Source: Mycobacterium phage prophiT46-2
Sequence record: OQ417970.1
Length of the DNA stretch: 64,000 bases
Direction: 5' to 3' (one strand)
A program made the position numbers and the translations under genes. Below, piece by piece: positions 5,992-26,065 of this stretch (positions are counted from its first letter, which is position 1; the number at the start of each line of letters is the position of its first letter). The notes under the pieces are model-generated. The model did not search any database and was not told the DNA's origin. It saw only the letters and a program-made list of their open reading frames with translations.

Positions 5992-6995
5992 CCGATACTC
6001 CTTTTTGGGCCAACTATGCCGAGCTGGCTGGTGACTACAAGGATCGTGACGAGTGGCTTGAGTTGCGGCGCACTGGTATCGGTTCGTCGGACTGCTCAGC
6101 AGTTCTTGGGATGGGCAAGTACGGTTCGCCGTTCTCCGTGTGGGTGGAGAAGACAGGCCGAGCCCGCCCGGAGGACGAGACCGAGGCGATGATGTGGGGC
6201 ACGCTGCTGGAGCCCGTGATCCGCGAGGAGCTGGCCCGCCGCCTCAACGTGGAAATCCTTGAGTGCAAGACGCTGCGGTCGCTGGTGCGGCCCTGGCAGC
6301 TGTACAACCCGGACGGTCTGATCCTCTCGCTCAACGCCCTCGTAGAGATCAAAAATGCGTCGGCATGGCTGGCATCTGACTGGGAAGACCAGGTGCCAGA
6401 TCACGCGGAACTGCAGGTGCAGCACGGGATGGCGGTCACGGGCGCTGACGGGGCTTACGTGGCCGGCCTGGTGGGTGGAAATCGGTTGCGCTGGGAGTAC
6501 ATCCCGCGTGACGAGGACCTGATCGCCACGATCAATCAGGCCGAGCAGCACCTATGGGAGACATACATCATCCCCGATGTCGCACCCCCGATCGACGGCT
6601 CGGACGCAACCGCGGAGGCCATCGCCGCACGCTGGCCGCGGCAGCCGGGAGTGGAGCTAATCGCAGAAGACCCCGCCTCGGTGGCCGATGCCGTCTCGGC
6701 CTATCGCTGCGCCCTCACGCAGGAGAAGGCGTCGAAGGTGGCCAAAGCAGAAGCGGTGAACCGGTTAGCCGCGCTGCTGCAGGGCGCTGACGTGCTCACA
6801 GATGAGGTGGGCAACAAGTTGGTTGCACTCAAACGAGGCCAGTTCCGAGAGAAGGAATTCCGCGCTGAGGAGCCTGACGCGGACCTGTGGCTCCACAAGG
6901 TCGAGGTCGTCGACCGTGACCTCCTCAAGTCCGAAAACCCCGAGCTATATCGGCGTTTTCAATCCACATCCATCTACATACCGAAAGGGAAATAA
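5988..6995 (+). CDS. YqaJ-like viral recombinase exonuclease (RecE/lambda-Exo-like PD-(D/E)XK)
   Basis: N-terminal YqaJ-like segment GIGSSDCSAVLGMGKYGSPFSVWVEKTG ... WGTLLEPVIREEL; immediately upstream of a RecT gene. Confidence 0.8.
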   Translation: MTDTPFWANYAELAGDYKDRDEWLELRRTGIGSSDCSAVLGMGKYGSPFSVWVEKTGRARPEDETEAMMWGTLLEPVIREELARRLNVEILECKTLRSLVRPWQLYNPDGLILSLNALVEIKNASAWLASDWEDQVPDHAELQVQHGMAVTGADGAYVAGLVGGNRLRWEYIPRDEDLIATINQAEQHLWETYIIPDVAPPIDGSDATAEAIAARWPRQPGVELIAEDPASVADAVSAYRCALTQEKASKVAKAEAVNRLAALLQGADVLTDEVGNKLVALKRGQFREKEFRAEEPDADLWLHKVEVVDRDLLKSENPELYRRFQSTSIYIPKGK

Positions 6996-10685: not shown

Positions 10686-10963
10686 CGATGAGCGTTCACT
10701 CAACGGGCGCCGATGCCGAGCCCGCCCGTTACGACGGCGGCATGAGGAACGTGCTGGAAGCGATCGACCGCGGCGCAGTGCTCGGCATCCTCGGCGCAGC
10801 CGACACCGCGCTGGCCACCAAGCAGCTCGCCGAGCGACAGGGAAAGGCGCTTGAGGAGATTCGCGGAGTGGCTGAGTACTGGCGAGATAACCCGCACTTT
10901 GGTCTAGAGATTCAGCAAGGCGCACGCCGAATCCTTCGCGCGATCGACGAGGCAGGTGCGTGA
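10679..10963 (+). CDS. hypothetical protein
   Basis: 94-aa ORF overlapping the neighbouring stop and start codons. Confidence 0.45.
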   Translation: MLTMSVHSTGADAEPARYDGGMRNVLEAIDRGAVLGILGAADTALATKQLAERQGKALEEIRGVAEYWRDNPHFGLEIQQGARRILRAIDEAGA

Positions 10964-12210
10964 TGCTGGCACCCAGGATCGGATCACTCTTCTCCGGCGC
11001 CGGTGGCCTCGACCTGGCCGTTGAGCATGTCGCTGGCGGCCGCACGGTGTGGCATTGCGAGGCCGACCCGGATGCCTCGAGAGTGCTTGCCGCCCATTGG
11101 CCGGGCGTGCCGAACCTCGGAGACATCACCGCCGTTGATTGGTCGGCAGTCGAGCCCGTAGACGTGCTGTGCGGCGGGTTTCCTTGCCAGGACGTGTCCG
11201 CGGCGGGCCGTCGCGCCGGTATCGCATCGGGCACAAGGTCGGGGCTCTGGCTGGAGTACGCCGAGGCAATCAATCAACTGCGACCACGACTGGTGGTCAT
11301 CGAGAACGTCAGGGGGCTACTCAGTGGCTACGCCCATCGCGCAATGGAACCCGGCCCGGATGATCTGGGAGACCGATCAAGCCGACCTCTTCTGCGAGCA
11401 GCGGGAGCCGTACTCGGAGACCTGGCCGACCTCGGGTACGACGCGCAATGGACAACTGTTGCCGCTTCCGAAGTCGGGGCACCGCACCGCCGCGAACGGG
11501 TCTTCATTGTTGCCCACCCCGCGGGCAGCGGCCGACCGAACCAGCAGAAGCGCGGCAATGCGCCGAGATTCGATGTCATCGCCGAGCCTGGCGCAGGCGA
11601 TCGAGATAGCGCGCGGGGAGCTACCGCGGGAATTCACCAGCTGGAACGAAGTGCCCGCGAGCTGGCAGCCGTAGATCTATTGCCGACTCCGACGGCCAGC
11701 CGATACGGAAGCAACCAGTCTCCGAGCCCCGGCGTAGCGGTGCGTCCAGGCCTGGACTCGATCGCAGACCTGTTGCCAACGCCTAATGCCAGTGACGCGA
11801 CCGGTGGCGGACAGACGCCCGACAAACGCGAGGGGCATTCTCGCCAGCTGATCGATTACGCACTCCTGAACGGCACGCCACAGTGGGGCAAGTATGAGCC
11901 CGCGATCAGGCGTTGGGAAGCCATCACCCGCGAGGCGCCCACACCGACGGAGCCTGGAGCCAGGGGAAATCCGCGCCTGGCCGCCGCGTTCTCTGAGTGG
12001 ATGATGGGCTGGCCGATCGGATGGGTTACACGAGTAGGCATCTCACACCCCGAGCGTCCCGGGATGCTCAAGAACGGCGTGGCACGTGACCATGCTACTG
12101 CTGCGCTGAGTCGATCCGCCATGCTGCGCATCATCGGCAACGGGGTGGTACCCCAGCAGGCGGTCGCGGCACTGCAATGGCTGCTCAGCGTTTGCGAGGT
12201 GGCCGCGTGA
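10960..12210 (+). CDS. dcm: DNA (cytosine-5)-methyltransferase
   Basis: Motif I FSGAGGLD, motif IV GGFPCQDVS, motif VI VIENVRGL; 416 aa. Confidence 0.85.
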   Translation: MMLAPRIGSLFSGAGGLDLAVEHVAGGRTVWHCEADPDASRVLAAHWPGVPNLGDITAVDWSAVEPVDVLCGGFPCQDVSAAGRRAGIASGTRSGLWLEYAEAINQLRPRLVVIENVRGLLSGYAHRAMEPGPDDLGDRSSRPLLRAAGAVLGDLADLGYDAQWTTVAASEVGAPHRRERVFIVAHPAGSGRPNQQKRGNAPRFDVIAEPGAGDRDSARGATAGIHQLERSARELAAVDLLPTPTASRYGSNQSPSPGVAVRPGLDSIADLLPTPNASDATGGGQTPDKREGHSRQLIDYALLNGTPQWGKYEPAIRRWEAITREAPTPTEPGARGNPRLAAAFSEWMMGWPIGWVTRVGISHPERPGMLKNGVARDHATAALSRSAMLRIIGNGVVPQQAVAALQWLLSVCEVAA

Positions 12211-12601: not shown

Positions 12602-13456
12602 ATGACCCCACCCCCCATGGCCTATTTCGGCGGTAAGACACGCCTTGCTCGCCGGATCGCTGATCTGCTTCCCCGGCATGGCCACTACGTCGAACCGTTC
12701 GCGGGAGGCCTCTCCGTGCTGCTGGCCAAGAAGCCCAGTCGCATGGAAACGGTCAACGACCTAGACGACAGGCTGATGACGTTCTGGCGAGTACTCCGCG
12801 ACAAACCAGAGCAGCTGGCTCGCGCATGCGCCCTTACTCCGCATAGCCGTGCGGAGTACTCAACCGCCCGCGACGCCGATCTCGACACTATCGAGGACGA
12901 CGTCGAGCGGGCCCGCCTGATCTGGGTACAGATCGCCGAAGGCCGCGGCGGCACGCTGCTCCGACAGACGGGCTGGCGCTACTACGTCAACCCAAGCCAG
13001 AACTCAACCGGGATGCCCGGCTACCTCAGTGCGTACGTGGACCGGATGGCTGCGGCTGCCGAGCGGTTGCAACGTGTCAGCCTGGAGTCTCGGCCGGCGC
13101 TCGAAATCATCGAAAAGTACGGCGCCCATTCGAAATGCTGCCTGTACGTGGACCCGCCGTACCTCGCGACCACGCGCAGCACGTCCGGCGGCGGCAACGG
13201 CTACCGCATCGACATGCCGGCACGCGCCGAGCATGTAGAGCTGCTGCGTGCGCTGACGGGGTGCCAGGCATCCGTGGTGCTGTCCGGCTACCCCTCCGAG
13301 CTGTACGACGAGGCGCTTCGGGGCTGGGACCGCATCGAGATACCCCACATGACTGGACAAGGAAGCGGTGCCAATCAAGGCCGGACAGAGGTGATTTGGT
13401 CAAACCGCCCGCTGCTACAGCAGATGACCATCGGGTATCACGAGGCCGGTGAATGA
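12602..13456 (+). CDS. dam: DNA adenine (N6) methyltransferase, Dam/D12 class
   Basis: EPFAGGLSV (FxGxG) and DPPY motifs; 284 aa. Confidence 0.85.
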   Translation: MTPPPMAYFGGKTRLARRIADLLPRHGHYVEPFAGGLSVLLAKKPSRMETVNDLDDRLMTFWRVLRDKPEQLARACALTPHSRAEYSTARDADLDTIEDDVERARLIWVQIAEGRGGTLLRQTGWRYYVNPSQNSTGMPGYLSAYVDRMAAAAERLQRVSLESRPALEIIEKYGAHSKCCLYVDPPYLATTRSTSGGGNGYRIDMPARAEHVELLRALTGCQASVVLSGYPSELYDEALRGWDRIEIPHMTGQGSGANQGRTEVIWSNRPLLQQMTIGYHEAGE

Positions 13457-16340: not shown

Positions 16341-16630
16341 GTCGGAACTGGCAGGCCCGCGCTGTGTGCCGGGACGAAGACCCCGAGCTGTTCTTCCCTG
16401 ACCCGTCCGACACCGTGACTGCGCGGGCAGCCCAGAGGGTGTGCGCCAAATGTCCTGTGAGGCCGCAGTGCCGGGCCGCCGCCAGCGCGAGACGCGAACC
16501 GTACGGGATCTGGGGCGGCGTCAACCGCGAGCTGGACGCGGACAGGCGACGACGATCCGCCTTTTCACCCCCGACGAATGAAATCAGCACACCGCCCACC
16601 ACCCCGACCACCGCAGAGGCAGCACAGTGA
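16337..16630 (+). CDS. whiB: WhiB-family transcription factor
   Basis: Four Cys (C-x-C ... CAKCPVRPQC) and the GIWGG turn typical of WhiB (Wbl) proteins. Confidence 0.75.
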   Translation: MSRNWQARAVCRDEDPELFFPDPSDTVTARAAQRVCAKCPVRPQCRAAASARREPYGIWGGVNRELDADRRRRSAFSPPTNEISTPPTTPTTAEAAQ

Positions 16631-17760
16631 CGACCCGCGAGTACGCCAAAAACCTGTTCGCCCAATGGTCCGACGACGACTTCTGCAACCAACCGATCTT
16701 CGACAAGCTGTTCTTCCAGGTCCTCAACGGGCAGCGCGCCGTCAATGCCGCCGGCATCCAGCCGATCAACTTCACCCGCTGGCGCAAGGCCATGCGCGAC
16801 GGCGAACACCTGCCCGCCGTGCGCGATCTGCAGGCTGCGCTGGTGCGCATGGAGCGCCGCGGTTTCGTGTTCACCGACGAGGACACGGGGGAGGTGCTGG
16901 TGCGGTCCCGGATCCGCCGCGACGAACTGGACAAGCAGCCCACCATGTTCCTGGCGGCGCTGCGCCTCCTGGCCGTCATCGACTCACCCAAGTTCGCCGC
17001 CGTGCTCGCCGACGAGCTCGACCGTATGGACGTCCCGGAGGTGAAGGGGGACAAGGACTACGCCAAGCGTCTGCGCGACTCCCTCAATGACACCCATAGG
17101 GCCGCCCGCCTACACCTCAAGACCCTGGCCGACGGATACCCGCAGCCGTTCCCCGAACCGTTCGACGGACTCACCGAGGGACCCTCCCAGGGACCCACCC
17201 CTAGACCCTCTACGGGCCCCTCCGAAGGACCCACCTCGGGAGGGTCTACGGGACCCACCCCGCGACCTGGGGAAACAGGACCCACCCCGGGACCCTCCCC
17301 GAGACCCACCCAGGGACCCTCGGGTTCTGGTTCAGGTTCAGGTTCTCTCACCTTGGTAACTACTCAAGTGGGGGGTACGCGTGCGCGCGCACACGAGACC
17401 GCCGAACCCACACCAGCACCAGACGAACCCCCCACACGATGCAAAGCCCACCGCGACTACCCCGACGCCATCGAGGACAACTGCGGCCCCTGCGCCAACT
17501 TCCGCAAGGCACACGAACGCTGGACCGAACACCAAACACGCGCCCAAGCCCAAGCCAGGGCCGACGCCCTCCACCAAGCCGCCCAACTCCGCGCCCACGC
17601 CATCGCCACCTGCGACCTCTGCGACCCAGACGGCTACCTCCCCGGCACCAGCACCGTCTGCAACCACAACCCCACCCAAGCCGAAACCAACGCCCGCGGA
17701 CGCCAACTCGTCCACGCCGCACTCCGCAGCCGAACCCAGCAGGAGACCGACGATGCGTGA
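16627..17760 (+). CDS. hypothetical early protein with a central (G/S)PTPRP low-complexity repeat linker and a C-terminal Cys motif
   Basis: 377 aa; repeats GPTPRPSTGPSEGPTSGGSTGPTPRPGETGPTPGPSPRPTQGPSGSGSGSGS encoded by DNA tandem repeats around 17160-17340; C-terminal CDLCDPDGYLPGTSTVCNH. Confidence 0.55.
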   Translation: MTTREYAKNLFAQWSDDDFCNQPIFDKLFFQVLNGQRAVNAAGIQPINFTRWRKAMRDGEHLPAVRDLQAALVRMERRGFVFTDEDTGEVLVRSRIRRDELDKQPTMFLAALRLLAVIDSPKFAAVLADELDRMDVPEVKGDKDYAKRLRDSLNDTHRAARLHLKTLADGYPQPFPEPFDGLTEGPSQGPTPRPSTGPSEGPTSGGSTGPTPRPGETGPTPGPSPRPTQGPSGSGSGSGSLTLVTTQVGGTRARAHETAEPTPAPDEPPTRCKAHRDYPDAIEDNCGPCANFRKAHERWTEHQTRAQAQARADALHQAAQLRAHAIATCDLCDPDGYLPGTSTVCNHNPTQAETNARGRQLVHAALRSRTQQETDDA

Positions 17761-18123: not shown

Positions 18124-18612
18124 ATGCCGCCAGTCATGAACCGCCAAGGCTCAAACCAACGCGCCGAAAAAGCCTGGCAGCTCCACATCGCCGGACGCAC
18201 ATGGCGCGAAGTCGCCGAGGTCACAGGCTTCAAATCGCCCCAATCGGCCCAGAAAGCCGCCATGGCATGGCTCAAGAAGAACCCGCCGTCCACCCTCGAA
18301 ATCGCGCGCCGCGCGAACGGTGACGGCATCCGCCAGGTTCGCGGAATGCTGATGGAGACCATGGCGAAGGCCAAGGCCAAGGGGGAGCACCGCACCGTTT
18401 CTGAGCTGGGCCGCGCCGTGCTCGACAGCTACGAGAAGGAGGCGAAGCTGTGGGGTCTGTTCGTCGTTGTGCCTGAGGAAGTCAACGTGAACGTTACGAC
18501 CGCTGTGGCGGTGCTGGAGCGAGCGGAGGCCGAGCTACTGGCACTGGCTGCGGCCGGCCAGCCCGCGATCTCGGCGCAGCCCGTCATCGACGCCGAGGTG
18601 GTCGAGCCGTGA
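18124..18612 (+). CDS. HTH DNA-binding protein (possible small-terminase-like or regulator)
   Basis: AWQLHIAGRTWREVAEVTGFKSPQSAQKAA HTH-like segment; 162 aa. Confidence 0.45.
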   Translation: MPPVMNRQGSNQRAEKAWQLHIAGRTWREVAEVTGFKSPQSAQKAAMAWLKKNPPSTLEIARRANGDGIRQVRGMLMETMAKAKAKGEHRTVSELGRAVLDSYEKEAKLWGLFVVVPEEVNVNVTTAVAVLERAEAELLALAAAGQPAISAQPVIDAEVVEP

Positions 18613-18953
18613 CCGCCCCGACCGAGCCCGTGCAGGACGCGATCAAGGCGGCGATGTTGGTCGCCAAGGATGTGGCTGAGGGACGGCTGGACCCGGCCGC
18701 GTTGAACGCCGCGGTGGTGGCCGAGTGCCGCGAGCTGTTCGCGTTCGTCGCCGGCCAGGGAGATCCGTTGTGGGACATCCACGTCGAGGTGACCCGCCAG
18801 GTGCTCGCCCTCGATGGCATCCCGGTCGACGAGCTGGCCGAGTGGCTGGCCGTGACACGCCGCGCGCAGGGCGTCGAAGCGCCGGCCGATTCGTGGATGG
18901 CGCGCGTACTGGAGCAGCTGGCCGACGAGGACGACGAGGCCGAGCCAGTCTAA
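18609..18953 (+). CDS. hypothetical acidic protein
   Basis: 114 aa; GTGA overlap. Confidence 0.5.
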   Translation: MTAPTEPVQDAIKAAMLVAKDVAEGRLDPAALNAAVVAECRELFAFVAGQGDPLWDIHVEVTRQVLALDGIPVDELAEWLAVTRRAQGVEAPADSWMARVLEQLADEDDEAEPV

Positions 18954-18984
18954 CTGGGGTATACCCGTGCCAAACAGATTGAAG

Positions 18985-19070
18985 AATCGGCGATATCAGC
19001 GGTGAAATGCGTAAATACAGTCTAACAAGAGTGGTTGACTAATTGTTAGACAAGGTTCTAATGTGGTCTA
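18985..19070. promoter_or_regulatory. AT-rich promoter with overlapping inverted repeats: TTGACT-18bp-TAATGT, IR GTCTAACAA/TTGTTAGAC (19011-19042), IR GGTTCTA/TAGAACC (19045-19066)
   Basis: About 140-bp low-GC intergenic region directly upstream of the 19097 operon; palindromes overlap the -35/-10-like hexamers. Confidence 0.55.
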
Positions 19071-19096
19071 GAACCTAGTTAGAAACGGAGAACTTC

Positions 19097-19336
19097 ATGA
19101 CCACCGCCACGAAAACCACCGGATACCTCACCAGCTTCACGACGACCTACCAGATCGAAGGCGTCACCGAAGCCCAGGCCGCACGGATCGCCGCCGCTGT
19201 CCAAACCGCCCTCCAGGGCGCTCTCACCGACCTCGCCAACGAAGAGGCCACCACTGCCGCCACGGCAAACGCCAGAGTGCTCGCGGTCCGCGTGGAGCGC
19301 CACGGTGCGCTGGTCGAGGAATACGAGGCCCGATGA
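19097..19336 (+). CDS. hypothetical protein (Thr/Ala-rich)
   Basis: 79 aa, SD GGAG 15 nt upstream. Confidence 0.5.
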   Translation: MTTATKTTGYLTSFTTTYQIEGVTEAQAARIAAAVQTALQGALTDLANEEATTAATANARVLAVRVERHGALVEEYEAR

Positions 19337-19698
19337 GCGCCAGCGACAAGCTGCAAGCCGCGATCAATACCCGCACCACGCCGCAACTGCTGTCCTACAT
19401 GGCCCACCTCGAGACCATGACCGCCACGTCAGAGACCCGCCTCCTCGGCGCCCTAATCGCCGACACCATCACCGAACGGGAGGGCATCGACGACGCCCTG
19501 GATGACGTGTTCGCAGACGAGACGTTCACCGGCACCTACCTCGACGCGATCCGTATCGCGCTGACCGACCGACGAGTCAAGCACCGGCACAGCGGCGCCG
19601 AAGGCATGTTGCTCAACGACCGTCACCGGCCCATCGCGCTCGTCCACTGGGACGGCGACCCACTACCCACCTGGGCCGACTGGTCCGACCTCGTATAA
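19333..19698 (+). CDS. hypothetical protein
   Basis: 121 aa, ATGA overlap. Confidence 0.5.
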   Translation: MSASDKLQAAINTRTTPQLLSYMAHLETMTATSETRLLGALIADTITEREGIDDALDDVFADETFTGTYLDAIRIALTDRRVKHRHSGAEGMLLNDRHRPIALVHWDGDPLPTWADWSDLV

Positions 19699-19720
19699 CC
19701 CACCCACCGAAAGGAAATCA

Positions 19721-19939
19721 ATGCTCACCGTTGCTCAACGCGCCCTGTTCGGCGTCGGCCTGCTCGTCGGGGCTGCCCTCGGAATCCCCGCGGGCACCGT
19801 GATGGCGGCCAGCGTGTCGGCCGAACTACTCACGGCCTGCGCCGAGGAAGACGGCAACCCCGACGGTCAGCCCTGCACATGGACGGACCCCGACACGGGC
19901 CGCGCGTTCTTCGTTGACTCCGCCAACTACCGAGGATGA
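19721..19939 (+). CDS. small secreted/membrane protein
   Basis: N-terminal hydrophobic LFGVGLLVGAALGIPAGTVMAASV; 72 aa. Confidence 0.45.
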   Translation: MLTVAQRALFGVGLLVGAALGIPAGTVMAASVSAELLTACAEEDGNPDGQPCTWTDPDTGRAFFVDSANYRG

Positions 19940-19946
19940 TGTCCCG

Positions 19947-20153
19947 ATGAGCGATCACAGCTCGCCGCAAGCCGCTCCCACCGAGGGGGCGGCTTCGCCG
20001 CGTTTCATGCGCCAGCTGGTCATTTGCCATCCAGAAATCTGGGCCGCGCTTGAACGGTGGGCCGCCGACCACGCCTCGGTGTTCTTCGAGATCCCCACGG
20101 GCGCTGACGGCATCCCGACGTACGGCTTCGGCGTTCGACTGGAGCAGCCATGA
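19947..20153 (+). CDS. hypothetical protein (alternative start 19914)
   Basis: ORF ending with an ATGA overlap into the recombinase gene. Confidence 0.4.
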   Translation: MSDHSSPQAAPTEGAASPRFMRQLVICHPEIWAALERWAADHASVFFEIPTGADGIPTYGFGVRLEQP

Positions 20154-20716
20154 CGGGGCAGCAGGTCGGCTACGTCCGGGTGTCGACCCTCGATCAGAAC
20201 ACCGAACGTCAGCTCGACGGCATCGAGGTTGATAAGCGGTTCGAGGACAAGGCCAGCGGCAAGGACACCGCCAGGCCGGCGCTCACCGAGGCGCTCGGTT
20301 ACGTACGTGAGGGCGACACTCTGGTGGTTCACTCGATGGATCGGCTGGCGCGGTCGCTGGAGGATCTACGGCGCACTGTGCGGGAGTTGACCGCTCGGGG
20401 TGTGCGGGTCCACTTCGTCAAGGAGAATCTGACGTTCACGGGCGACGATTCGCCGATGTCCACGCTGCTGCTGTCGATGCTGGGCGCGGTGGCTGAGTTC
20501 GAGCGTTCGATGATCCGGGAGCGACAGCGTGAAGGCATCGAACTCGCGAAAGCCAAGGGCGTGTACAAGGGCCGCAAGCCGGCGCTGACGGATGAGCAGA
20601 CCGCCGCGGTGTTGGAGCGGCTGGCCGGCGGCGAGCACCCAGCCGATTTAGCGCGCGAGTTCGGGGTATCGCGGGCGACGGTCTACAACGTACGGGCACG
20701 AGCTTTGGAGAGCTAG
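20150..20716 (+). CDS. small serine recombinase (resolvase/invertase family) with C-terminal HTH
   Basis: GYVRVSTLDQNTERQ catalytic-serine motif, resolvase core, C-terminal HTH LAREFGVSRATVYNV; 188 aa. Confidence 0.85.
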   Translation: MTGQQVGYVRVSTLDQNTERQLDGIEVDKRFEDKASGKDTARPALTEALGYVREGDTLVVHSMDRLARSLEDLRRTVRELTARGVRVHFVKENLTFTGDDSPMSTLLLSMLGAVAEFERSMIRERQREGIELAKAKGVYKGRKPALTDEQTAAVLERLAGGEHPADLAREFGVSRATVYNVRARALES

Positions 20717-20991
20717 ATGGCAGGCGGTTGGTGGAGGGCCTCGACGCGCTCCCATTTAGCGCCTACCCTCTGCGCGCCTGGCGGATGCCCTTCGTCGGTG
20801 GTCAGCAATACCCACTTTCCCCGCGGGAGAAAGTATGACCGCTGGGCAGCTTGGTCCCAGATTCCGAGGACGCCGCCGGGCAGGATGGCGAATGCGTCGT
20901 CGTTGTTGTAATCCTCGAACGGTTCGGCACCGTCTTGAGGGTCGGGTGCAGCGAACGTTGAACCCACGGGGTACGTCACTCTGAAGCTCAT
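20713..20991 (-). CDS. hypothetical protein
   Basis: 92-aa - strand ORF convergent with the recombinase; unusual orientation, could be spurious. Confidence 0.3.
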   Translation of the reverse strand: MSFRVTYPVGSTFAAPDPQDGAEPFEDYNNDDAFAILPGGVLGIWDQAAQRSYFLPRGKWVLLTTDEGHPPGAQRVGAKWERVEALHQPPAI

Positions 20992-21955: not shown

Positions 21956-22087
21956 TTATCCGAGGAGTAAGCGGCCACGTGAAGTGCGTCAGCAAGGCTA
22001 CCTTTTCGCAGGTCGCGCCCAGTTCGGTGGCAAAGAATCAAGATTGTTTTCTAGATCAGCTTTCACCCCAGCTCAGCGTGCTTTACA

Positions 22088-23542
22088 GTGTTCCCCATGG
22101 TCTCCGGGGACATCGATTCAGGCAACCATTACAAGGCATACTGGTGCCGTGTACTGCAACACCAGCCCAACAAGCCGGTAGTTCAGCGCGCACGTCAGCG
22201 CGTCCGTGCCGCACTGGTCGCGGTCGCAGTCCTCGCGGTTGGGGCTGGCACGGTTCAGGTCGCGACACTGCACACGGCGCCGGGCAGTGGCTTCTCCACG
22301 CTGGCGACGGTGGGCGCGGAACCGACCGGCCCGCCGGGACCGACCGGCGGCATGACCGACGGCGGGGGCTCTCAGTTCCAGCCTCCAGCGCAACCGCCGT
22401 CAATGCCGGACTACCAGGGTGGCAACAACTTACCGCCTCTGGATCAGAACTCGGGCATCTCAATTTACAATTCCGGCAATCCGCAAGCACCGCAGCAGGT
22501 TCCGGGTCAGCAGGGCGGGCAGCAGCCGCAGCAGAGCTGGGATCAGCCCGCGCACGGAACCCAGATGCCCAATTACTCCACGGCGCCGGGGTACACCCAG
22601 GGGCCGGGAAAGCCGAACCCTGATTATCAAGCGCCGCAGCAGAGTTCACCGCAGCAGGGTCAGCAGTCCCCGCAGCAAGGGCAGCAGCAGTCTCCGCAAC
22701 AGAATCAAGAGCAGCAGCAGAACCAGCCGGAGCAACAGCAGCAGGAGCAGCAGGACCAGGGTGATCAGCAGCGGCAGCAGCGCTGCGAGGCGATGTCGCA
22801 ACAGTTGGACCAGATCACCGAGACCGCCGGGCAGGTCGCCGATGTTGTTCAGCAGGTCGGTGATGCGGCCGAGGTCGTGCTGCCCAAGGGCGGTGGTGGA
22901 TCGCTGGGCCCTGACGGTGAACGTTCGCCGGGCCGCGTACCAGTTCAACCGCTCGAGTGTGGTGACTGCCCGCCAGATCGGAAGCCACAGAATCCGTTCT
23001 GCAAGCTCTTCCCCAATGCAGGCGTCAAGCAGACGTGCGAGGGCTTCATCGACGACTGGATGGAGAACTTCAAAGACTCATGCGAGCCCGGCAAGCCGAA
23101 TTGCAAGGGCAAGGTTCCGATCTGCTATCCACGAGACGTGACCAATCCTTCCGACGCCATGAAGAAGAGTATGCAAGATTATATTGACGGCGGAAATAAA
23201 CTCATCAGGGATAATGAAAAACTCGGTGGTCAAGTCATCAAACGTTCAACCAACGGTTTGAGCGGCAGACGTGAGGCCGATAAAAAGCTGGCCAATTTGA
23301 GATATGGCGAGAAAGCGTTTGACGGTAAGGCGTACGGTCATATACCGGACCTGACATGGATGGGAACAATCCTTGATGAACGTGATGTCATTCCGTTCGA
23401 CAAGGACCTCAATTCCTCTATAGGCGGTCAGTCCAATAGATTCAAGACCGATTTTCAAGCTACAGAGTTTGTCGTCGGGTACTGGGGCTCCGTGGTCGGT
23501 TCCAAGAACACGCAATGCCTCGCGCCCGAGGCGGTCGCGTGA
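22088..23542 (+). CDS. secreted Gln/Pro-rich protein with a Cys-rich middle region and a low-GC C-terminal domain of unknown function (candidate secreted effector or polymorphic toxin)
   Basis: Signal-like RARQRVRAALVAVAVLAVGAGTVQVATLHTA; long Q/P low-complexity tract (CAG-rich DNA 22600-22800); 10 Cys between 22780 and 23130; the last third of the gene drops to roughly 40-50% GC. Confidence 0.6.
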   Translation: MFPMVSGDIDSGNHYKAYWCRVLQHQPNKPVVQRARQRVRAALVAVAVLAVGAGTVQVATLHTAPGSGFSTLATVGAEPTGPPGPTGGMTDGGGSQFQPPAQPPSMPDYQGGNNLPPLDQNSGISIYNSGNPQAPQQVPGQQGGQQPQQSWDQPAHGTQMPNYSTAPGYTQGPGKPNPDYQAPQQSSPQQGQQSPQQGQQQSPQQNQEQQQNQPEQQQQEQQDQGDQQRQQRCEAMSQQLDQITETAGQVADVVQQVGDAAEVVLPKGGGGSLGPDGERSPGRVPVQPLECGDCPPDRKPQNPFCKLFPNAGVKQTCEGFIDDWMENFKDSCEPGKPNCKGKVPICYPRDVTNPSDAMKKSMQDYIDGGNKLIRDNEKLGGQVIKRSTNGLSGRREADKKLANLRYGEKAFDGKAYGHIPDLTWMGTILDERDVIPFDKDLNSSIGGQSNRFKTDFQATEFVVGYWGSVVGSKNTQCLAPEAVA

Positions 23543-23544
23543 AA

Positions 23545-24060
23545 ATCATGCCTTCAATCAGAGAGAAACTAGGTGGACGCACACGCTTCGCCGCTGTCGC
23601 GCTGGCCTGGGTAGCAACGATTGCCATCGCATCACTGGTGACCTACGTTCTGTGTATGCAGCACCCGAGTGCCACATCCGAGAAATACGACGCTGAAGTT
23701 CGTGCGGTGATCGAGGAGTACATCGACGCCATAAACAGGAGTGATCTTGCGCGTATCGAAGCTCTTTCGACCGGCACGGCAGAAGAGCAGCTAAACCCGC
23801 AATTCAAGGGTGGATACGTCCGCATTATGGCACTAAAGATTGAAGACCACGGCCCGATGCATATTCACGATTTCAGCATTCTGGCACGGGGCGACCTTGT
23901 CTATGATGCGCTCGTCTATACCGAGTTCGAGGACCAGAAAAACCCGAAACCCGAAGACATCTACTACTACACCGGGTCACGAGTTCGGTACAGCATGTAC
24001 AGGCTCAACGGACAATGGAAAGTCATGAGTGTCGAGACATTCAGGGCCGACGCCAAGTGA
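23545..24060 (+). CDS. membrane-anchored NTF2/SnoaL-like protein (low-GC gene; candidate immunity or accessory partner)
   Basis: N-terminal TM FAAVALAWVATIAIASLVTYVLC; NTF2-like pattern (IEEYIDAINRSDLARIEAL ... YRLNGQWKV); AT-rich relative to the surrounding genome. Confidence 0.5.
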   Translation: MMPSIREKLGGRTRFAAVALAWVATIAIASLVTYVLCMQHPSATSEKYDAEVRAVIEEYIDAINRSDLARIEALSTGTAEEQLNPQFKGGYVRIMALKIEDHGPMHIHDFSILARGDLVYDALVYTEFEDQKNPKPEDIYYYTGSRVRYSMYRLNGQWKVMSVETFRADAK

Positions 24061-24605
24061 ACCGAGCCAGCAGCACCGTGATTGTGGGGATAGCGGTTTC
24101 CGTGCTGACGCTGCCGGGCTGCCAGAGCGCCCAGCCGGCAGAGCCTCCCGGACCTAACTACGCGAAGATTCCTGGACAGTTCCCCGAACCCGCGACCACG
24201 ACGACAGCGGGAGCAGAGGACGCCCCGGTGGGCTCATGCGTCAAGATCACCGGGAAACGTACAAACGCGGAAATGGCGCTCACCAAGTGCGAATCCCCCG
24301 ACGCCACACACCGCATCGTTCAGAGGGTCGTAGAGCCCAAAGACTGTGTCCGCGACGTCGATCGGCGCTACTACCGAAACACCTCAGCTGGCGAATGGAC
24401 CGCATGCCTGGACCTGTACTGGGCCAACCCCGGCTGCCTGAGCATCACCGACGAAGCCACCCGCGCAGTCCCATGCAACGACACCACAGCTCCAAACCGA
24501 TTCCGCGCTACCAAACTGGTAGTCGGCGTATCGAATGGCGACATGTGCAAGGGATATGCACATCCGGTGCGTCGGTTCACTATCTGTACGGAAATGCAGA
24601 AGTAG
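24015..24605 (+). CDS. lipoprotein (lipobox LTLPGC); alternative start GTG 24078
   Basis: VIVGIAVSVLTLPGCQSAQ signal peptide plus lipobox; 8 Cys in the mature part. Confidence 0.55.
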   Translation: MESHECRDIQGRRQVNRASSTVIVGIAVSVLTLPGCQSAQPAEPPGPNYAKIPGQFPEPATTTTAGAEDAPVGSCVKITGKRTNAEMALTKCESPDATHRIVQRVVEPKDCVRDVDRRYYRNTSAGEWTACLDLYWANPGCLSITDEATRAVPCNDTTAPNRFRATKLVVGVSNGDMCKGYAHPVRRFTICTEMQK

Positions 24606-24838
24606 GGCGGCTTGGTCGTCAAACTGCTGAGCTTCGCTCGGGTGCTGTTTATTGTGGTGTGGGTGGTCGAAACGGGGCTGTGGCTGTTCACAGATACTTC
24701 ATTGTGGAGTGTTAACCAGTACCTGTTTCCGGCACTCATGCTGTGGGTTATCGCTGATGCCACCGTGAAAGCCGCGCGGTCGCAATAAGAGCCCTCGCTA
24801 CGAGATCCGTTTCATCGTCTGCTGCCAGACTGCGGCGC

Positions 24839-26065
24839 GTGCCCGAATACACGCAGCTTGCCGTCGATGACCTGCACACCTTCAAAGGCAACCCGCGCCG
24901 CGGCGATGTCAGCCAGATCGCCGTTTCGTTGACCAAGCACGGCCAGTACCGGCCGCTCGTGGTGAACCGGGGCAGCCAAACCGGCCGCCGTAACGAGGTG
25001 CTGGCCGGCAACCACACGTTGATGGCTGCACGATCGCTCGGCTGGAGCACGATTGATGTCGGGATCGTGGATGTCGATGAGGACACCGCGCGCTCGATCG
25101 TGGCGGCCGATAATCGGCTGGCCGACCTGGGCGAGTACGACACCTCGGACCTGTATCAGCTGTTGTCGTCGATCGAGGACCTGGGCGGAACCGGTTACGG
25201 GCTCGAGGATTTGTTGGCGATGGAGCGCGATCTTTTCCCGCCGGAGCCGCTGACCGATCCAGATGATGTTCCGCCGGCACCGGAGTCGCCGGTGTCGCGC
25301 CCGGGGCAGTTGTGGTCGTTGGGGGAGCATCGGCTGCTGGTCGGATCGGCGACGGATTTGGAGGGTGTGCGGGTGCTGTGTGGTGATGTGCAGCCGGATT
25401 GCGTCTGGACGGACCCGCCTTACGGCGTGGACTATGTGGGGAAGACGAAGGCTGCGCTGCGGATCCAAAACGACGTGACTGGTGGGCTTTTCGAGCTGCT
25501 GAAGGCGGCGTTCGATGTGTTGGCCGCGGTGGCGCGGCCGGGCGCCCCGGTGTACGTGGCTCACGCCGACACCGAGCGCACAACGTTCGAGTCCGCGATG
25601 GAGAGCGCCGGGCTGCAAGTGCGTCAGAACCTGGTGTGGGTGAAGAACATGATGGCCCTTGGCCGTTCGGACTACCAGTATCGGCACGAGCCCATCCTGT
25701 ACGGGTTCGTCCCGGGCGGCGAGGGCCGATTGGGACGCGGTGGTGATCGCTGGTTCGGCGACAACAAGTCCACCACGGTGTTTGAGGTGGATAAGCCTGC
25801 CCGCAACGCCGAACACCCGACGATGAAGCCCGTGGCGTTGATCGACGCGATGCTGGCCAACAGCCTGCGGCCAGGTGGTGTGGTGCTGGATCCGTTCTCG
25901 GGTTCGGGTAGCACGCTGATCGCAGCGCATGGCCGCCAGTCCCGGTGCTTCGGTGTGGAATTGGATCCTCGGTATGCCGATGTGATTCTGCGACGGTTCG
26001 AGGAGCACACGGGCATCGTTCCAGAGCTCGACAGTGTCCCGGTGTCGTTCGCGGGCGCAGCCTGA
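24839..26065 (+). CDS. ParB-like nuclease domain fused to a DNA N6/N4 methyltransferase
   Basis: N-terminal ParB/Srx-like segment (FKGNPRRGD ... LAGNHTLMAA); methyltransferase motifs DPPYG (IV) then DPFSGSGST (I), i.e. beta-class order. Confidence 0.8.
   Translation: MPEYTQLAVDDLHTFKGNPRRGDVSQIAVSLTKHGQYRPLVVNRGSQTGRRNEVLAGNHTLMAARSLGWSTIDVGIVDVDEDTARSIVAADNRLADLGEYDTSDLYQLLSSIEDLGGTGYGLEDLLAMERDLFPPEPLTDPDDVPPAPESPVSRPGQLWSLGEHRLLVGSATDLEGVRVLCGDVQPDCVWTDPPYGVDYVGKTKAALRIQNDVTGGLFELLKAAFDVLAAVARPGAPVYVAHADTERTTFESAMESAGLQVRQNLVWVKNMMALGRSDYQYRHEPILYGFVPGGEGRLGRGGDRWFGDNKSTTVFEVDKPARNAEHPTMKPVALIDAMLANSLRPGGVVLDPFSGSGSTLIAAHGRQSRCFGVELDPRYADVILRRFEEHTGIVPELDSVPVSFAGAA

Follow-up and report, generated by a model that had tools for sequence, protein, structure and literature searches.

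A Tn21/Tn1721-type res site and its resolvase gene in a Cluster MabL-type prophage of Mycobacterium abscessus

The DNA analysed here, a stretch of 64,000 nt (hereafter, the window) from Mycobacterium phage prophiT46-2 (sequence record OQ417970.1), carries at positions 20150-20716 on the plus strand an ATG-initiated gene for a small serine recombinase of 188 amino acids, of the Tn21/Tn1721 TnpR (resolvase) type. As had been noted before, the gene is the last in a block of five co-directional open reading frames (ORFs), overlapping or a few bases apart, that starts at an AT-rich intergenic region. By its sequence, this region (18948-19086) is a diverged Tn21/Tn1721-type res site with three subsites, lying on the gene’s strand. 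The original prediction for this locus had placed an operator/promoter at 18985-19070 and had found recombination sites not to be obvious; predicted promoter elements do occur there, but the region recognised only as operator/promoter is itself the three-subsite res.

The window is a Cluster MabL-type Mycobacterium abscessus prophage. In the closest phage records (prophiT48-1, prophiT36-1, prophiT49-1, prophiGD88-1 and prophiGD43A-6), the recombinases are 96-98% identical at the amino acid level to the one studied here, and the closest relatives have been assigned to Cluster MabL (PMC8092301, PMC9934374). Neither of these two papers mentions the resolvase, and we found no description of a recombination site; GenBank records of relatives give the gene product as “DNA recombinase” or “resolvase/DNA invertase-like serine recombinase”. 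An identical recombinase protein is encoded in an NCBI assembly, within a contig of 586 kb and far from both ends of the prophage, which is therefore chromosomally integrated.

The recombinase and its relatives

The protein consists of a catalytic domain (Pfam Resolvase, PF00239; E = 2.1e-38, residues 6-138) and a C-terminal helix-turn-helix domain (HTH_7, PF02796; E = 3.4e-9, residues 141-181), both scoring above cut-off, and its length falls within the range of small serine recombinases (~180-210 amino acids). The catalytic signature is complete (Y8-V-R10-V-S12, D64-R65-L-A-R68 and E118-R119) and invariant in an alignment of six homologues, i.e., Tn1721 TnpR and five phage homologues. Domains and catalytic residues thus bear out the original assignment to the small serine recombinases of the resolvase/invertase type.

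Over its full length, the protein shares 63% of amino acid identity with Tn1721 TnpR, and identity with TnpR-type recombinases of proteobacterial plasmids reaches at most 67.8%, over at least 95% of the length. The nearest homologues outside mycobacteria are recombinases of Nocardia and Tsukamurella plasmids (69-73% identity), after which come thousands of proteobacterial TnpR resolvases of the Tn21/Tn1721/Tn501 type. An 86%-identical homologue occurs, in the same local gene order, in the Mycobacterium smegmatis phages Sejanus and Mask, on which we found no literature. We classify the enzyme as a resolvase because of its high identity to TnpR and the presence of a res site. A call between resolvase and invertase from sequence comparison with solved structures in the PDB was dropped: the scores of Gin (100 bits), Sin (99) and Tn3 (88; Tn3/gamma-delta, ~87) are too close to discriminate.

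The gene is maintained under strong purifying selection. Its dN/dS ratio (Nei-Gojobori, eleven relatives) is 0.03-0.17, at dS values of up to 0.87, and among divergent phages the recombinase retains 84-89% of amino acid identity versus 33-67% for the products of neighbouring genes.

Architecture and conservation of the res site

Upstream of the resolvase gene, non-phage homologues (Tn1721, the Tn21 family and Nocardia plasmids) have a conserved region of ~125 bp with three dyad-symmetric blocks, to which the intergenic region in the window aligns colinearly. We have set the subsite boundaries by alignment and dyad symmetry; those of site III are approximate. Site I, the predicted crossover site (18948-18975, plus strand; GTCTAACTGGGGTA/TACCCGTGCCAAAC), is an imperfect dyad of 28 bp with AT as its central dinucleotide. 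It aligns to site I in the res of Tn1721, the Tn21 family and the Nocardia plasmids, and is invariant or nearly so among 20 distinct phage-type sites. With Tn21/Tn1721/Tn501 it has the pattern GTC...TGGGGTAtACCC...GAC in common, whereas the outer half-site reads GTCTAA here and GTCAGA there. These first six bases (GTCTAA, 18948-18953) include the stop codon of the upstream ORF (18609-18953), and relatives with other upstream genes (prophiT48-1 gp35; loci L105 and L108) also finish their ORF in GTCTAA.

Sites I and II are separated by a spacer of 44 bp (18976-19019, plus strand), the length of which is kept while its sequence is free, with almost no conserved columns in the alignment of the 20 distinct sites. 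From centre to centre, the two sites are 74 bp apart (~7.0 helical turns) in 16 of the 18 distinct sites where this could be measured, and 75 bp in L005 and L114. The corresponding distance in Tn1721 is 53.5 bp (~5.1 turns), the phage-type spacing being exactly two turns longer. Spacings of four to seven turns occur between sites I and II, and helical phasing matters (PMC12217951). The accessory site II (19020-19051, plus strand; GTCTAACAAGAGTGGTTGACTAATTGTTAGAC) is a 32-bp inverted repeat that aligns to the canonical site II, GTCAGAATAGAGTC...TTTCTTGAC, and shares with Tn21/Tn1721/Tn501 the pattern GTC..A.AGAGT....TTG.T.GAC; its ends are conserved in all phage-type sites. The accessory site III (~19065-19086, plus strand; GGTCTAGAACCTAGTTAGAAAC), likewise conserved among phage-type sites, aligns to the canonical site III, ggtcttagAtttcatcctgACAc, and its centre lies ~40 bp from that of site II, as against ~41 bp in Tn1721.

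The promoter of the five-ORF block probably lies within res. A -35-like element, TTGACT (19035-19040, plus strand), occupies the centre of site II, and 18 nt after it the predicted -10 hexamer TAATGT (19059-19064, plus strand), of the TANNNT type, is found in the spacer between sites II and III. The TANNNT motif is kept in all 20 distinct phage-type sites (variants: TAATGT, TAATCT, TACTGT, TAGTCT and TAACGT). A generic sigma-70 scan did not call this res-embedded promoter, the prediction of which is hence drawn from conservation only.

We searched for the site with profiles built without any phage sequence. A first profile, made from eight sites and run over 128,000 nt, gave matches on site I only (E = 0.47 and 1.1). 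We then scanned 131 loci holding recombinase homologues: a canonical res accompanies nearly every non-phage homologue and usually abuts the gene, and in the non-phage loci L011, L019, L039, L118 and L119, the res is located 0.5-3.7 kb upstream of the resolvase gene with other genes in between. The iterated profile, comprising 60 non-phage res sites, has its top match in the window at 18948-19075 on the plus strand (E = 0.0095), spanning positions 1-109 of the 121 in the model. When the AT-rich segment was shuffled 5000 times with its dinucleotide composition preserved, no shuffle reached the real score of 11.0 bits, the best of them scoring 5.0. The same profile matches at the equivalent place and on the gene’s strand, 270-2200 bp upstream, in ~20 phage-type loci, at E values down to 4e-6; these include the divergent loci L005, L110, L112 and L114. 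Furthermore, 18 out of 2.9 million viral contigs contain the invariant 18-nt site I core, and all 18 of these carry the recombinase, with one copy of the core each. The conserved blocks, set apart by a spacer of fixed length and free sequence, suggest a functional res.

The site has no partner in the window. Neither the full phage-type res profile nor the separate profiles for sites I, II and III identified a second site on either strand of the 64 kb. A search for inverted and direct repeats between 18500 and 25500, which includes the flanks of the recombinase gene, returned only short pairs of low identity such as arise by chance, and none that brackets the recombinase gene or the cargo genes downstream. 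We also considered whether the motif is an operator dispersed over the genome, as stoperators are in cluster A phages; however, the rest of the window shows no enrichment of GTCTAACAA or TCTAGAACC. In several MabL relatives, an apparent second res (e.g., L001, 9473-9519; L095, 10187-10234) was judged coincidental: it corresponds to the right half of the canonical site I only (ACCCTAACCGGATGTCAG), without the left half and without the central TA. This half-site, not present in the window, is in direct orientation 4-5.6 kb downstream of the recombinase gene, within the coding sequence for a lipoprotein signal peptide.

A different arrangement exists in L118 (IMGVR_UViG_3300046810_000166), a metagenomic viral contig of 93.7 kb with two canonical Tn21-type res sites in inverted orientation, at 2188-2303 on the plus strand (E = 2e-20) and 11051-11165 on the minus strand (E = 1.6e-10). 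They are ~8.7 kb apart and bracket a recombinase gene at 6001; the pair could define an invertible or composite segment.

Traces of a transposon were not detected either. A tblastn search of the window with Tn1721 TnpA gave a best E value of 3.6, i.e., no transposase remnant, and there is no large ORF with a transposase domain near the recombinase gene. Neither Tn3-type terminal inverted repeats nor target-site duplications were seen in the relatives, although terminal repeats were not searched exhaustively.

Operon, replication module and cargo region

The first ORF of the block (19097-19336, plus strand; 79 amino acids; phrog_34838, E = 6e-39) is preceded by a ribosome-binding site, GGAGAA (19087-19092), and overlaps by 4 nt with the second (19333-19698, plus strand; 121 amino acids; phrog_28577, E = 6e-71); both are present in most MabL relatives. 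The third (19721-19939, plus strand; 72 amino acids) specifies a hydrophobic N-terminus and has weak PHROG matches (E = 8e-8), while the fourth (19947-20153, plus strand; 68 amino acids) has no match in PHROG or Pfam; its stop codon overlaps with the start codon of the recombinase gene (ATGA). An independent gene caller returned the same five ORFs (79, 121, 72, 68 and 188 amino acids) on the public assembly, and the block appears to constitute an operon. The segment of ~450 bp with the 72- and 68-amino-acid ORFs (19700-20149), between the 121-amino-acid ORF and the recombinase gene, is absent from most MabL relatives, and the sequence between 20007 and 20146 has no counterpart in any related locus fetched. 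All phage-type loci nevertheless keep one order (initiator, DNA-binding protein, 114-amino-acid ORF, res, variable ORFs and resolvase), with two to four variable passenger ORFs between res and the resolvase gene. The run is closed by a convergent ORF (20713-20991, minus strand), the stop codon of which overlaps with that of the recombinase gene (TAG, 20714-20716) inside the palindrome CTAG. This convergent gene encodes 203 amino acids in prophiGD88-1 versus 92 in the window, where the copy may be truncated.

The initiator of the replication module is RepA-like (16627-17760; phrog_3171, E = 4e-103). The DNA between 17000 and 18000 shows a strong strand asymmetry (GC skew -0.29, AT skew +0.44), which coincides with a low-complexity linker of the initiator, rich in Pro, Thr, Gly and Ser, that gives rise to spurious long ORFs in the other frames. 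The prophage also has a tyrosine integrase, as originally described, at 96-1229 (Phage_integrase, E = 4.7e-21), and three DNA methyltransferases: a C5-cytosine enzyme (10960-12210), a D12/Dam enzyme (12602-13456) and an N6/N4 enzyme (24839-26065), the last fused to a ParB_N domain and encoded just upstream of the terminase.

Downstream, the recombinase gene adjoins a cargo region of low GC content (0.52 at 23-24 kb vs ~0.64 elsewhere), again in line with the earlier description, and the DNA between it and the block of N6/N4 methylase and terminase differs in each relative. In the window, this DNA includes a cargo cassette of three genes (~21996-24605) encoding a protein of 484 amino acids with a Q/P-rich region, a protein of 181 amino acids with a hydrophobic segment at its N-terminal end and a lipoprotein (lipobox LPGC); Pfam has no match to any of the three. 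The unrelated prophage prophi79-1 carries the cassette too, as its genes 69-71 (84% of nucleotide identity), and encodes no recombinase within 5 kb of it. Because of this recurrence, the cassette is a mobile “moron” common to different prophage clusters. Conversely, the res-resolvase module is kept with entirely different cargo in prophiT49-1 and prophiGD88-1, and is also found in the M. smegmatis phages.

Multimer resolution and alternative roles

We consider that the sequence between 18948 and 20716 is probably a resolution module of the Tn21/Tn1721 type without a transposase, which resolves genome multimers or tandem prophages and autoregulates its operon. What we propose for binding, repression, recombination and the substrate in vivo is deduced from sequence and known relatives. 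Resolvase dimers would bind the three subsites of the single res (18948-19086), and their occupancy of sites II and III, which flank or overlap the predicted operon promoter, would repress the five-ORF operon, an autoregulation as in elements of the Tn3 family. Recombination would need two directly repeated res sites on one supercoiled molecule; since each genome has one res, the substrates would have to hold two genome copies. These could be circular dimers or multimers of the genome, arising either through homologous recombination or when the adjacent RepA-like initiator module directs theta-type replication, and, further, tandem prophage arrays. Cleavage at the central AT of site I, rotation of subunits by 180 degrees and religation would then yield monomers. 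Three-subsite resolvases act at least 1000-fold slower on inverted, intermolecular or relaxed substrates, and Sin-type resolvases serve theta-replicating plasmids (PMC9943657). The combination of a single res and resolvase with an adjoining initiator module and no linked transposase is that of multimer-resolution systems of the SGI1 Res, Sin and ParA-RK2 type.

Among characterised systems, the TnpR and res of Tn21, Tn1721 and Tn501 resemble the module most closely in the colinear order of the three subsites on the gene’s strand and in the distance between sites II and III. They differ in the spacing of sites I and II (five turns instead of seven) and in that their res abuts the gene, whereas here it is 1.06 kb upstream with four small ORFs in between; moreover, the replicon that hosts the module is a temperate actinophage, in which no transposase was found with TnpA and no transposon ends were seen, although these were not searched exhaustively. 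The Nocardia and Tsukamurella plasmids (pNF2, pPE-7 and others; uncharacterised), which encode the closest non-phage homologues, likewise have a stand-alone res and resolvase on theta-type replicons with no adjacent transposase, but their res is canonical, with five-turn spacing, directly upstream of the gene and matched by the profile at E = 1e-28 to 1e-32. An ancient plasmid or transposon origin of the res-resolvase pair is plausible. Salmonella genomic island 1 (SGI1) provides a parallel in an integrating element: it too has a tyrosine integrase together with a small serine resolvase and a three-subsite, Tn3-like res, and this res-resolvase pair has been demonstrated to remove tandem multimers rapidly (PMC12217951). 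The SGI1 resolvase is nearer to those of Tn3, gamma-delta and ISXc5, its res abuts the gene, and its carrier is an integrative mobilisable element of a gammaproteobacterial host and not a phage; function was shown experimentally for SGI1, whereas here it is inferred from sequence.

Several observations weigh against multimer resolution or against the res assignment underlying it. The eight-site profile alone was not significant (E = 0.47), and the match of the window to the canonical res is only modestly so (E ~0.01). The reciprocal phage-type profile had a sole match in 2.1 Mb of non-phage loci, in L117, a metagenomic viral contig with a bridging form of res (sites II and III are phage-like, site I can be recognised and the spacing is five turns). 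The distance of 1.06 kb between res and the recombinase gene and the seven-turn spacing of sites I and II, at the edge of the range reported to be functional, count on the same side. Among 101 phage records with this initiator family, at most ~19 (10 of Mycobacterium and fewer than 10 of Gordonia) can have a homologue of the recombinase, and seven carry a close one; because most initiator phages go without a resolvase, multimer resolution is not obligate for a replication module of this type, and the system is accessory. Phages that package concatemers do not obviously need monomer circles. Finally, RNA sequencing of a lysogen of a MabL relative found most of the prophage silent (PMC8092301). 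A role in resolving tandem prophages would, for that reason, need induction or leaky expression, and activity during infection or after induction is likelier.

The pair might instead serve now mainly as operator and repressor of the operon of small ORFs, located where the early genes meet the cargo, with recombination having become rare or vestigial. The resolvases of Tn3-family elements (Tn3, gamma-delta) are autorepressors, the -35 (TTGAC) and -10 (TANNNT) elements in or between sites II and III are conserved in the 20 distinct sites, and the two to four variable passenger ORFs between res and resolvase fit such a role. Site I, however, lies upstream of the promoter at a distance of 60 bp and has no obvious regulatory task, but is conserved more strictly than any other block, the region of its central dinucleotide included; synapsis, unlike repression, depends on the conserved length between sites I and II; and strong purifying selection acts on a protein with invariant catalytic residues. 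We hold this role to be unlikely as the principal one. Another idea is that res is a hot spot at which related phages or prophages exchange DNA: resolvase acting on heterodimers or on co-resident MabL prophages would swap the arms to the left and right of site I and so drive the local mosaicism. Compared with relatives of the prophiT48-1 type, identity falls from 97.6% to 89.4% at 18943/18944, the left edge of site I; the same combination of site I and spacer is found next to at least four different left flanks, and a single left flank occurs with at least four different spacers. The breakpoints of homology with the relatives as a whole are nevertheless spread over 18943-18948 (left edge of site I), ~19105, ~19699, 20150±4, 20703 or ~20992, and 24580-24810; relatives such as L101 are colinear at 97.6% across res and break at 19699-20154 instead. 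Breakpoints at gene boundaries are typical of phage mosaicism generally, a four-gamete configuration was not found, and three-subsite resolvases select against intermolecular recombination (PMC9943657), all of which makes such exchange quite improbable. Its stronger form, in which resolvase acting at site I of heterodimers or of co-resident related prophages effects a programmed exchange of modules in MabL-type phages (the replication/early arm against the cargo/structural arm), and in which the seven-turn res and the passenger ORFs are adaptations to the phage life cycle, we regard as a speculation with little chance of being correct.

Two other possibilities had been raised by the original prediction. 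According to one, a mobile element, of the Tn3 family or another kind, brought in the low-GC cassette and is now decaying, the recombinase being what is left of it; this would agree with Tn3-family TnpR proteins and their res being the closest relatives, and with the hypervariability, from relative to relative, of the DNA that follows the gene. The evidence makes this very unlikely: the best TnpA hit is insignificant, the dN/dS values are incompatible with decay, the res-resolvase pair is conserved with other cargo in prophiT49-1, prophiGD88-1 and the M. smegmatis phages, and the cassette stands in prophi79-1 without a recombinase. Inversion or excision of the cassette or of upstream genes by a DNA invertase/deletase, leading to phase variation in lysogens, is largely refuted, and we give it hardly any credence. 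The family does include invertases, Gin scores best among the solved structures and the best PHROG match, phrog_125, is labelled “DNA invertase”. The invertases Gin (Mu), Cin (P1) and Hin, similar in protein superfamily and size, nonetheless use two inverted 26-bp sites and a Fis-bound enhancer and have no accessory subsites, whereas here there is one three-subsite site, with no partner in either orientation in the window and no convincing inverted repeats around any segment between 18500 and 25500. The protein is 63-67% identical to bona fide TnpR, none of the NCBIfam equivalogs passes its cut-off (the Mpi invertase model, NF009949, scores 56.4 bits against a cut-off of 272), a three-subsite res selects against inversion (PMC9943657), and MabL prophages are largely silent in lysogeny (PMC8092301). 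Least credible of all, to the point of being negligible, is a second system for integration and excision with the small serine recombinase as integrase. In the Ralstonia phage phiRSM, a small serine recombinase reportedly acts as integrase, and Ralstonia phage records are the largest group of homologues in the phage collection (98 of 492); one MabL relative, moreover, has a serine integrase and another attB (PMC9934374, Table 2). The prophage, however, has its own tyrosine integrase at its left end, accessory subsites are typical of resolution systems, and in the 586-kb contig the recombinase is far from either prophage end.

The res-resolvase pair is a system of known type with two variant features, the seven-turn spacing between sites I and II and the passenger ORFs between res and the gene; current understanding is not overturned by it. 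For a gene whose annotation in MabL prophages and related M. smegmatis phages is no more than generic, it supplies a predicted mechanism together with a defined DNA site, and it does away with the notion of phase variation in the neighbouring cassette for secreted proteins. The res (~140 bp) and the 188-amino-acid resolvase could be developed into a tool for site-specific deletion that is native to mycobacteria, and for the engineering of M. abscessus phages and their use in therapy, the module is probably deletable or reusable. If its activity is confirmed, this would be an integrating temperate actinophage that keeps a multimer-resolution system of the transposon/plasmid type beside its replication module, in parallel to SGI1.

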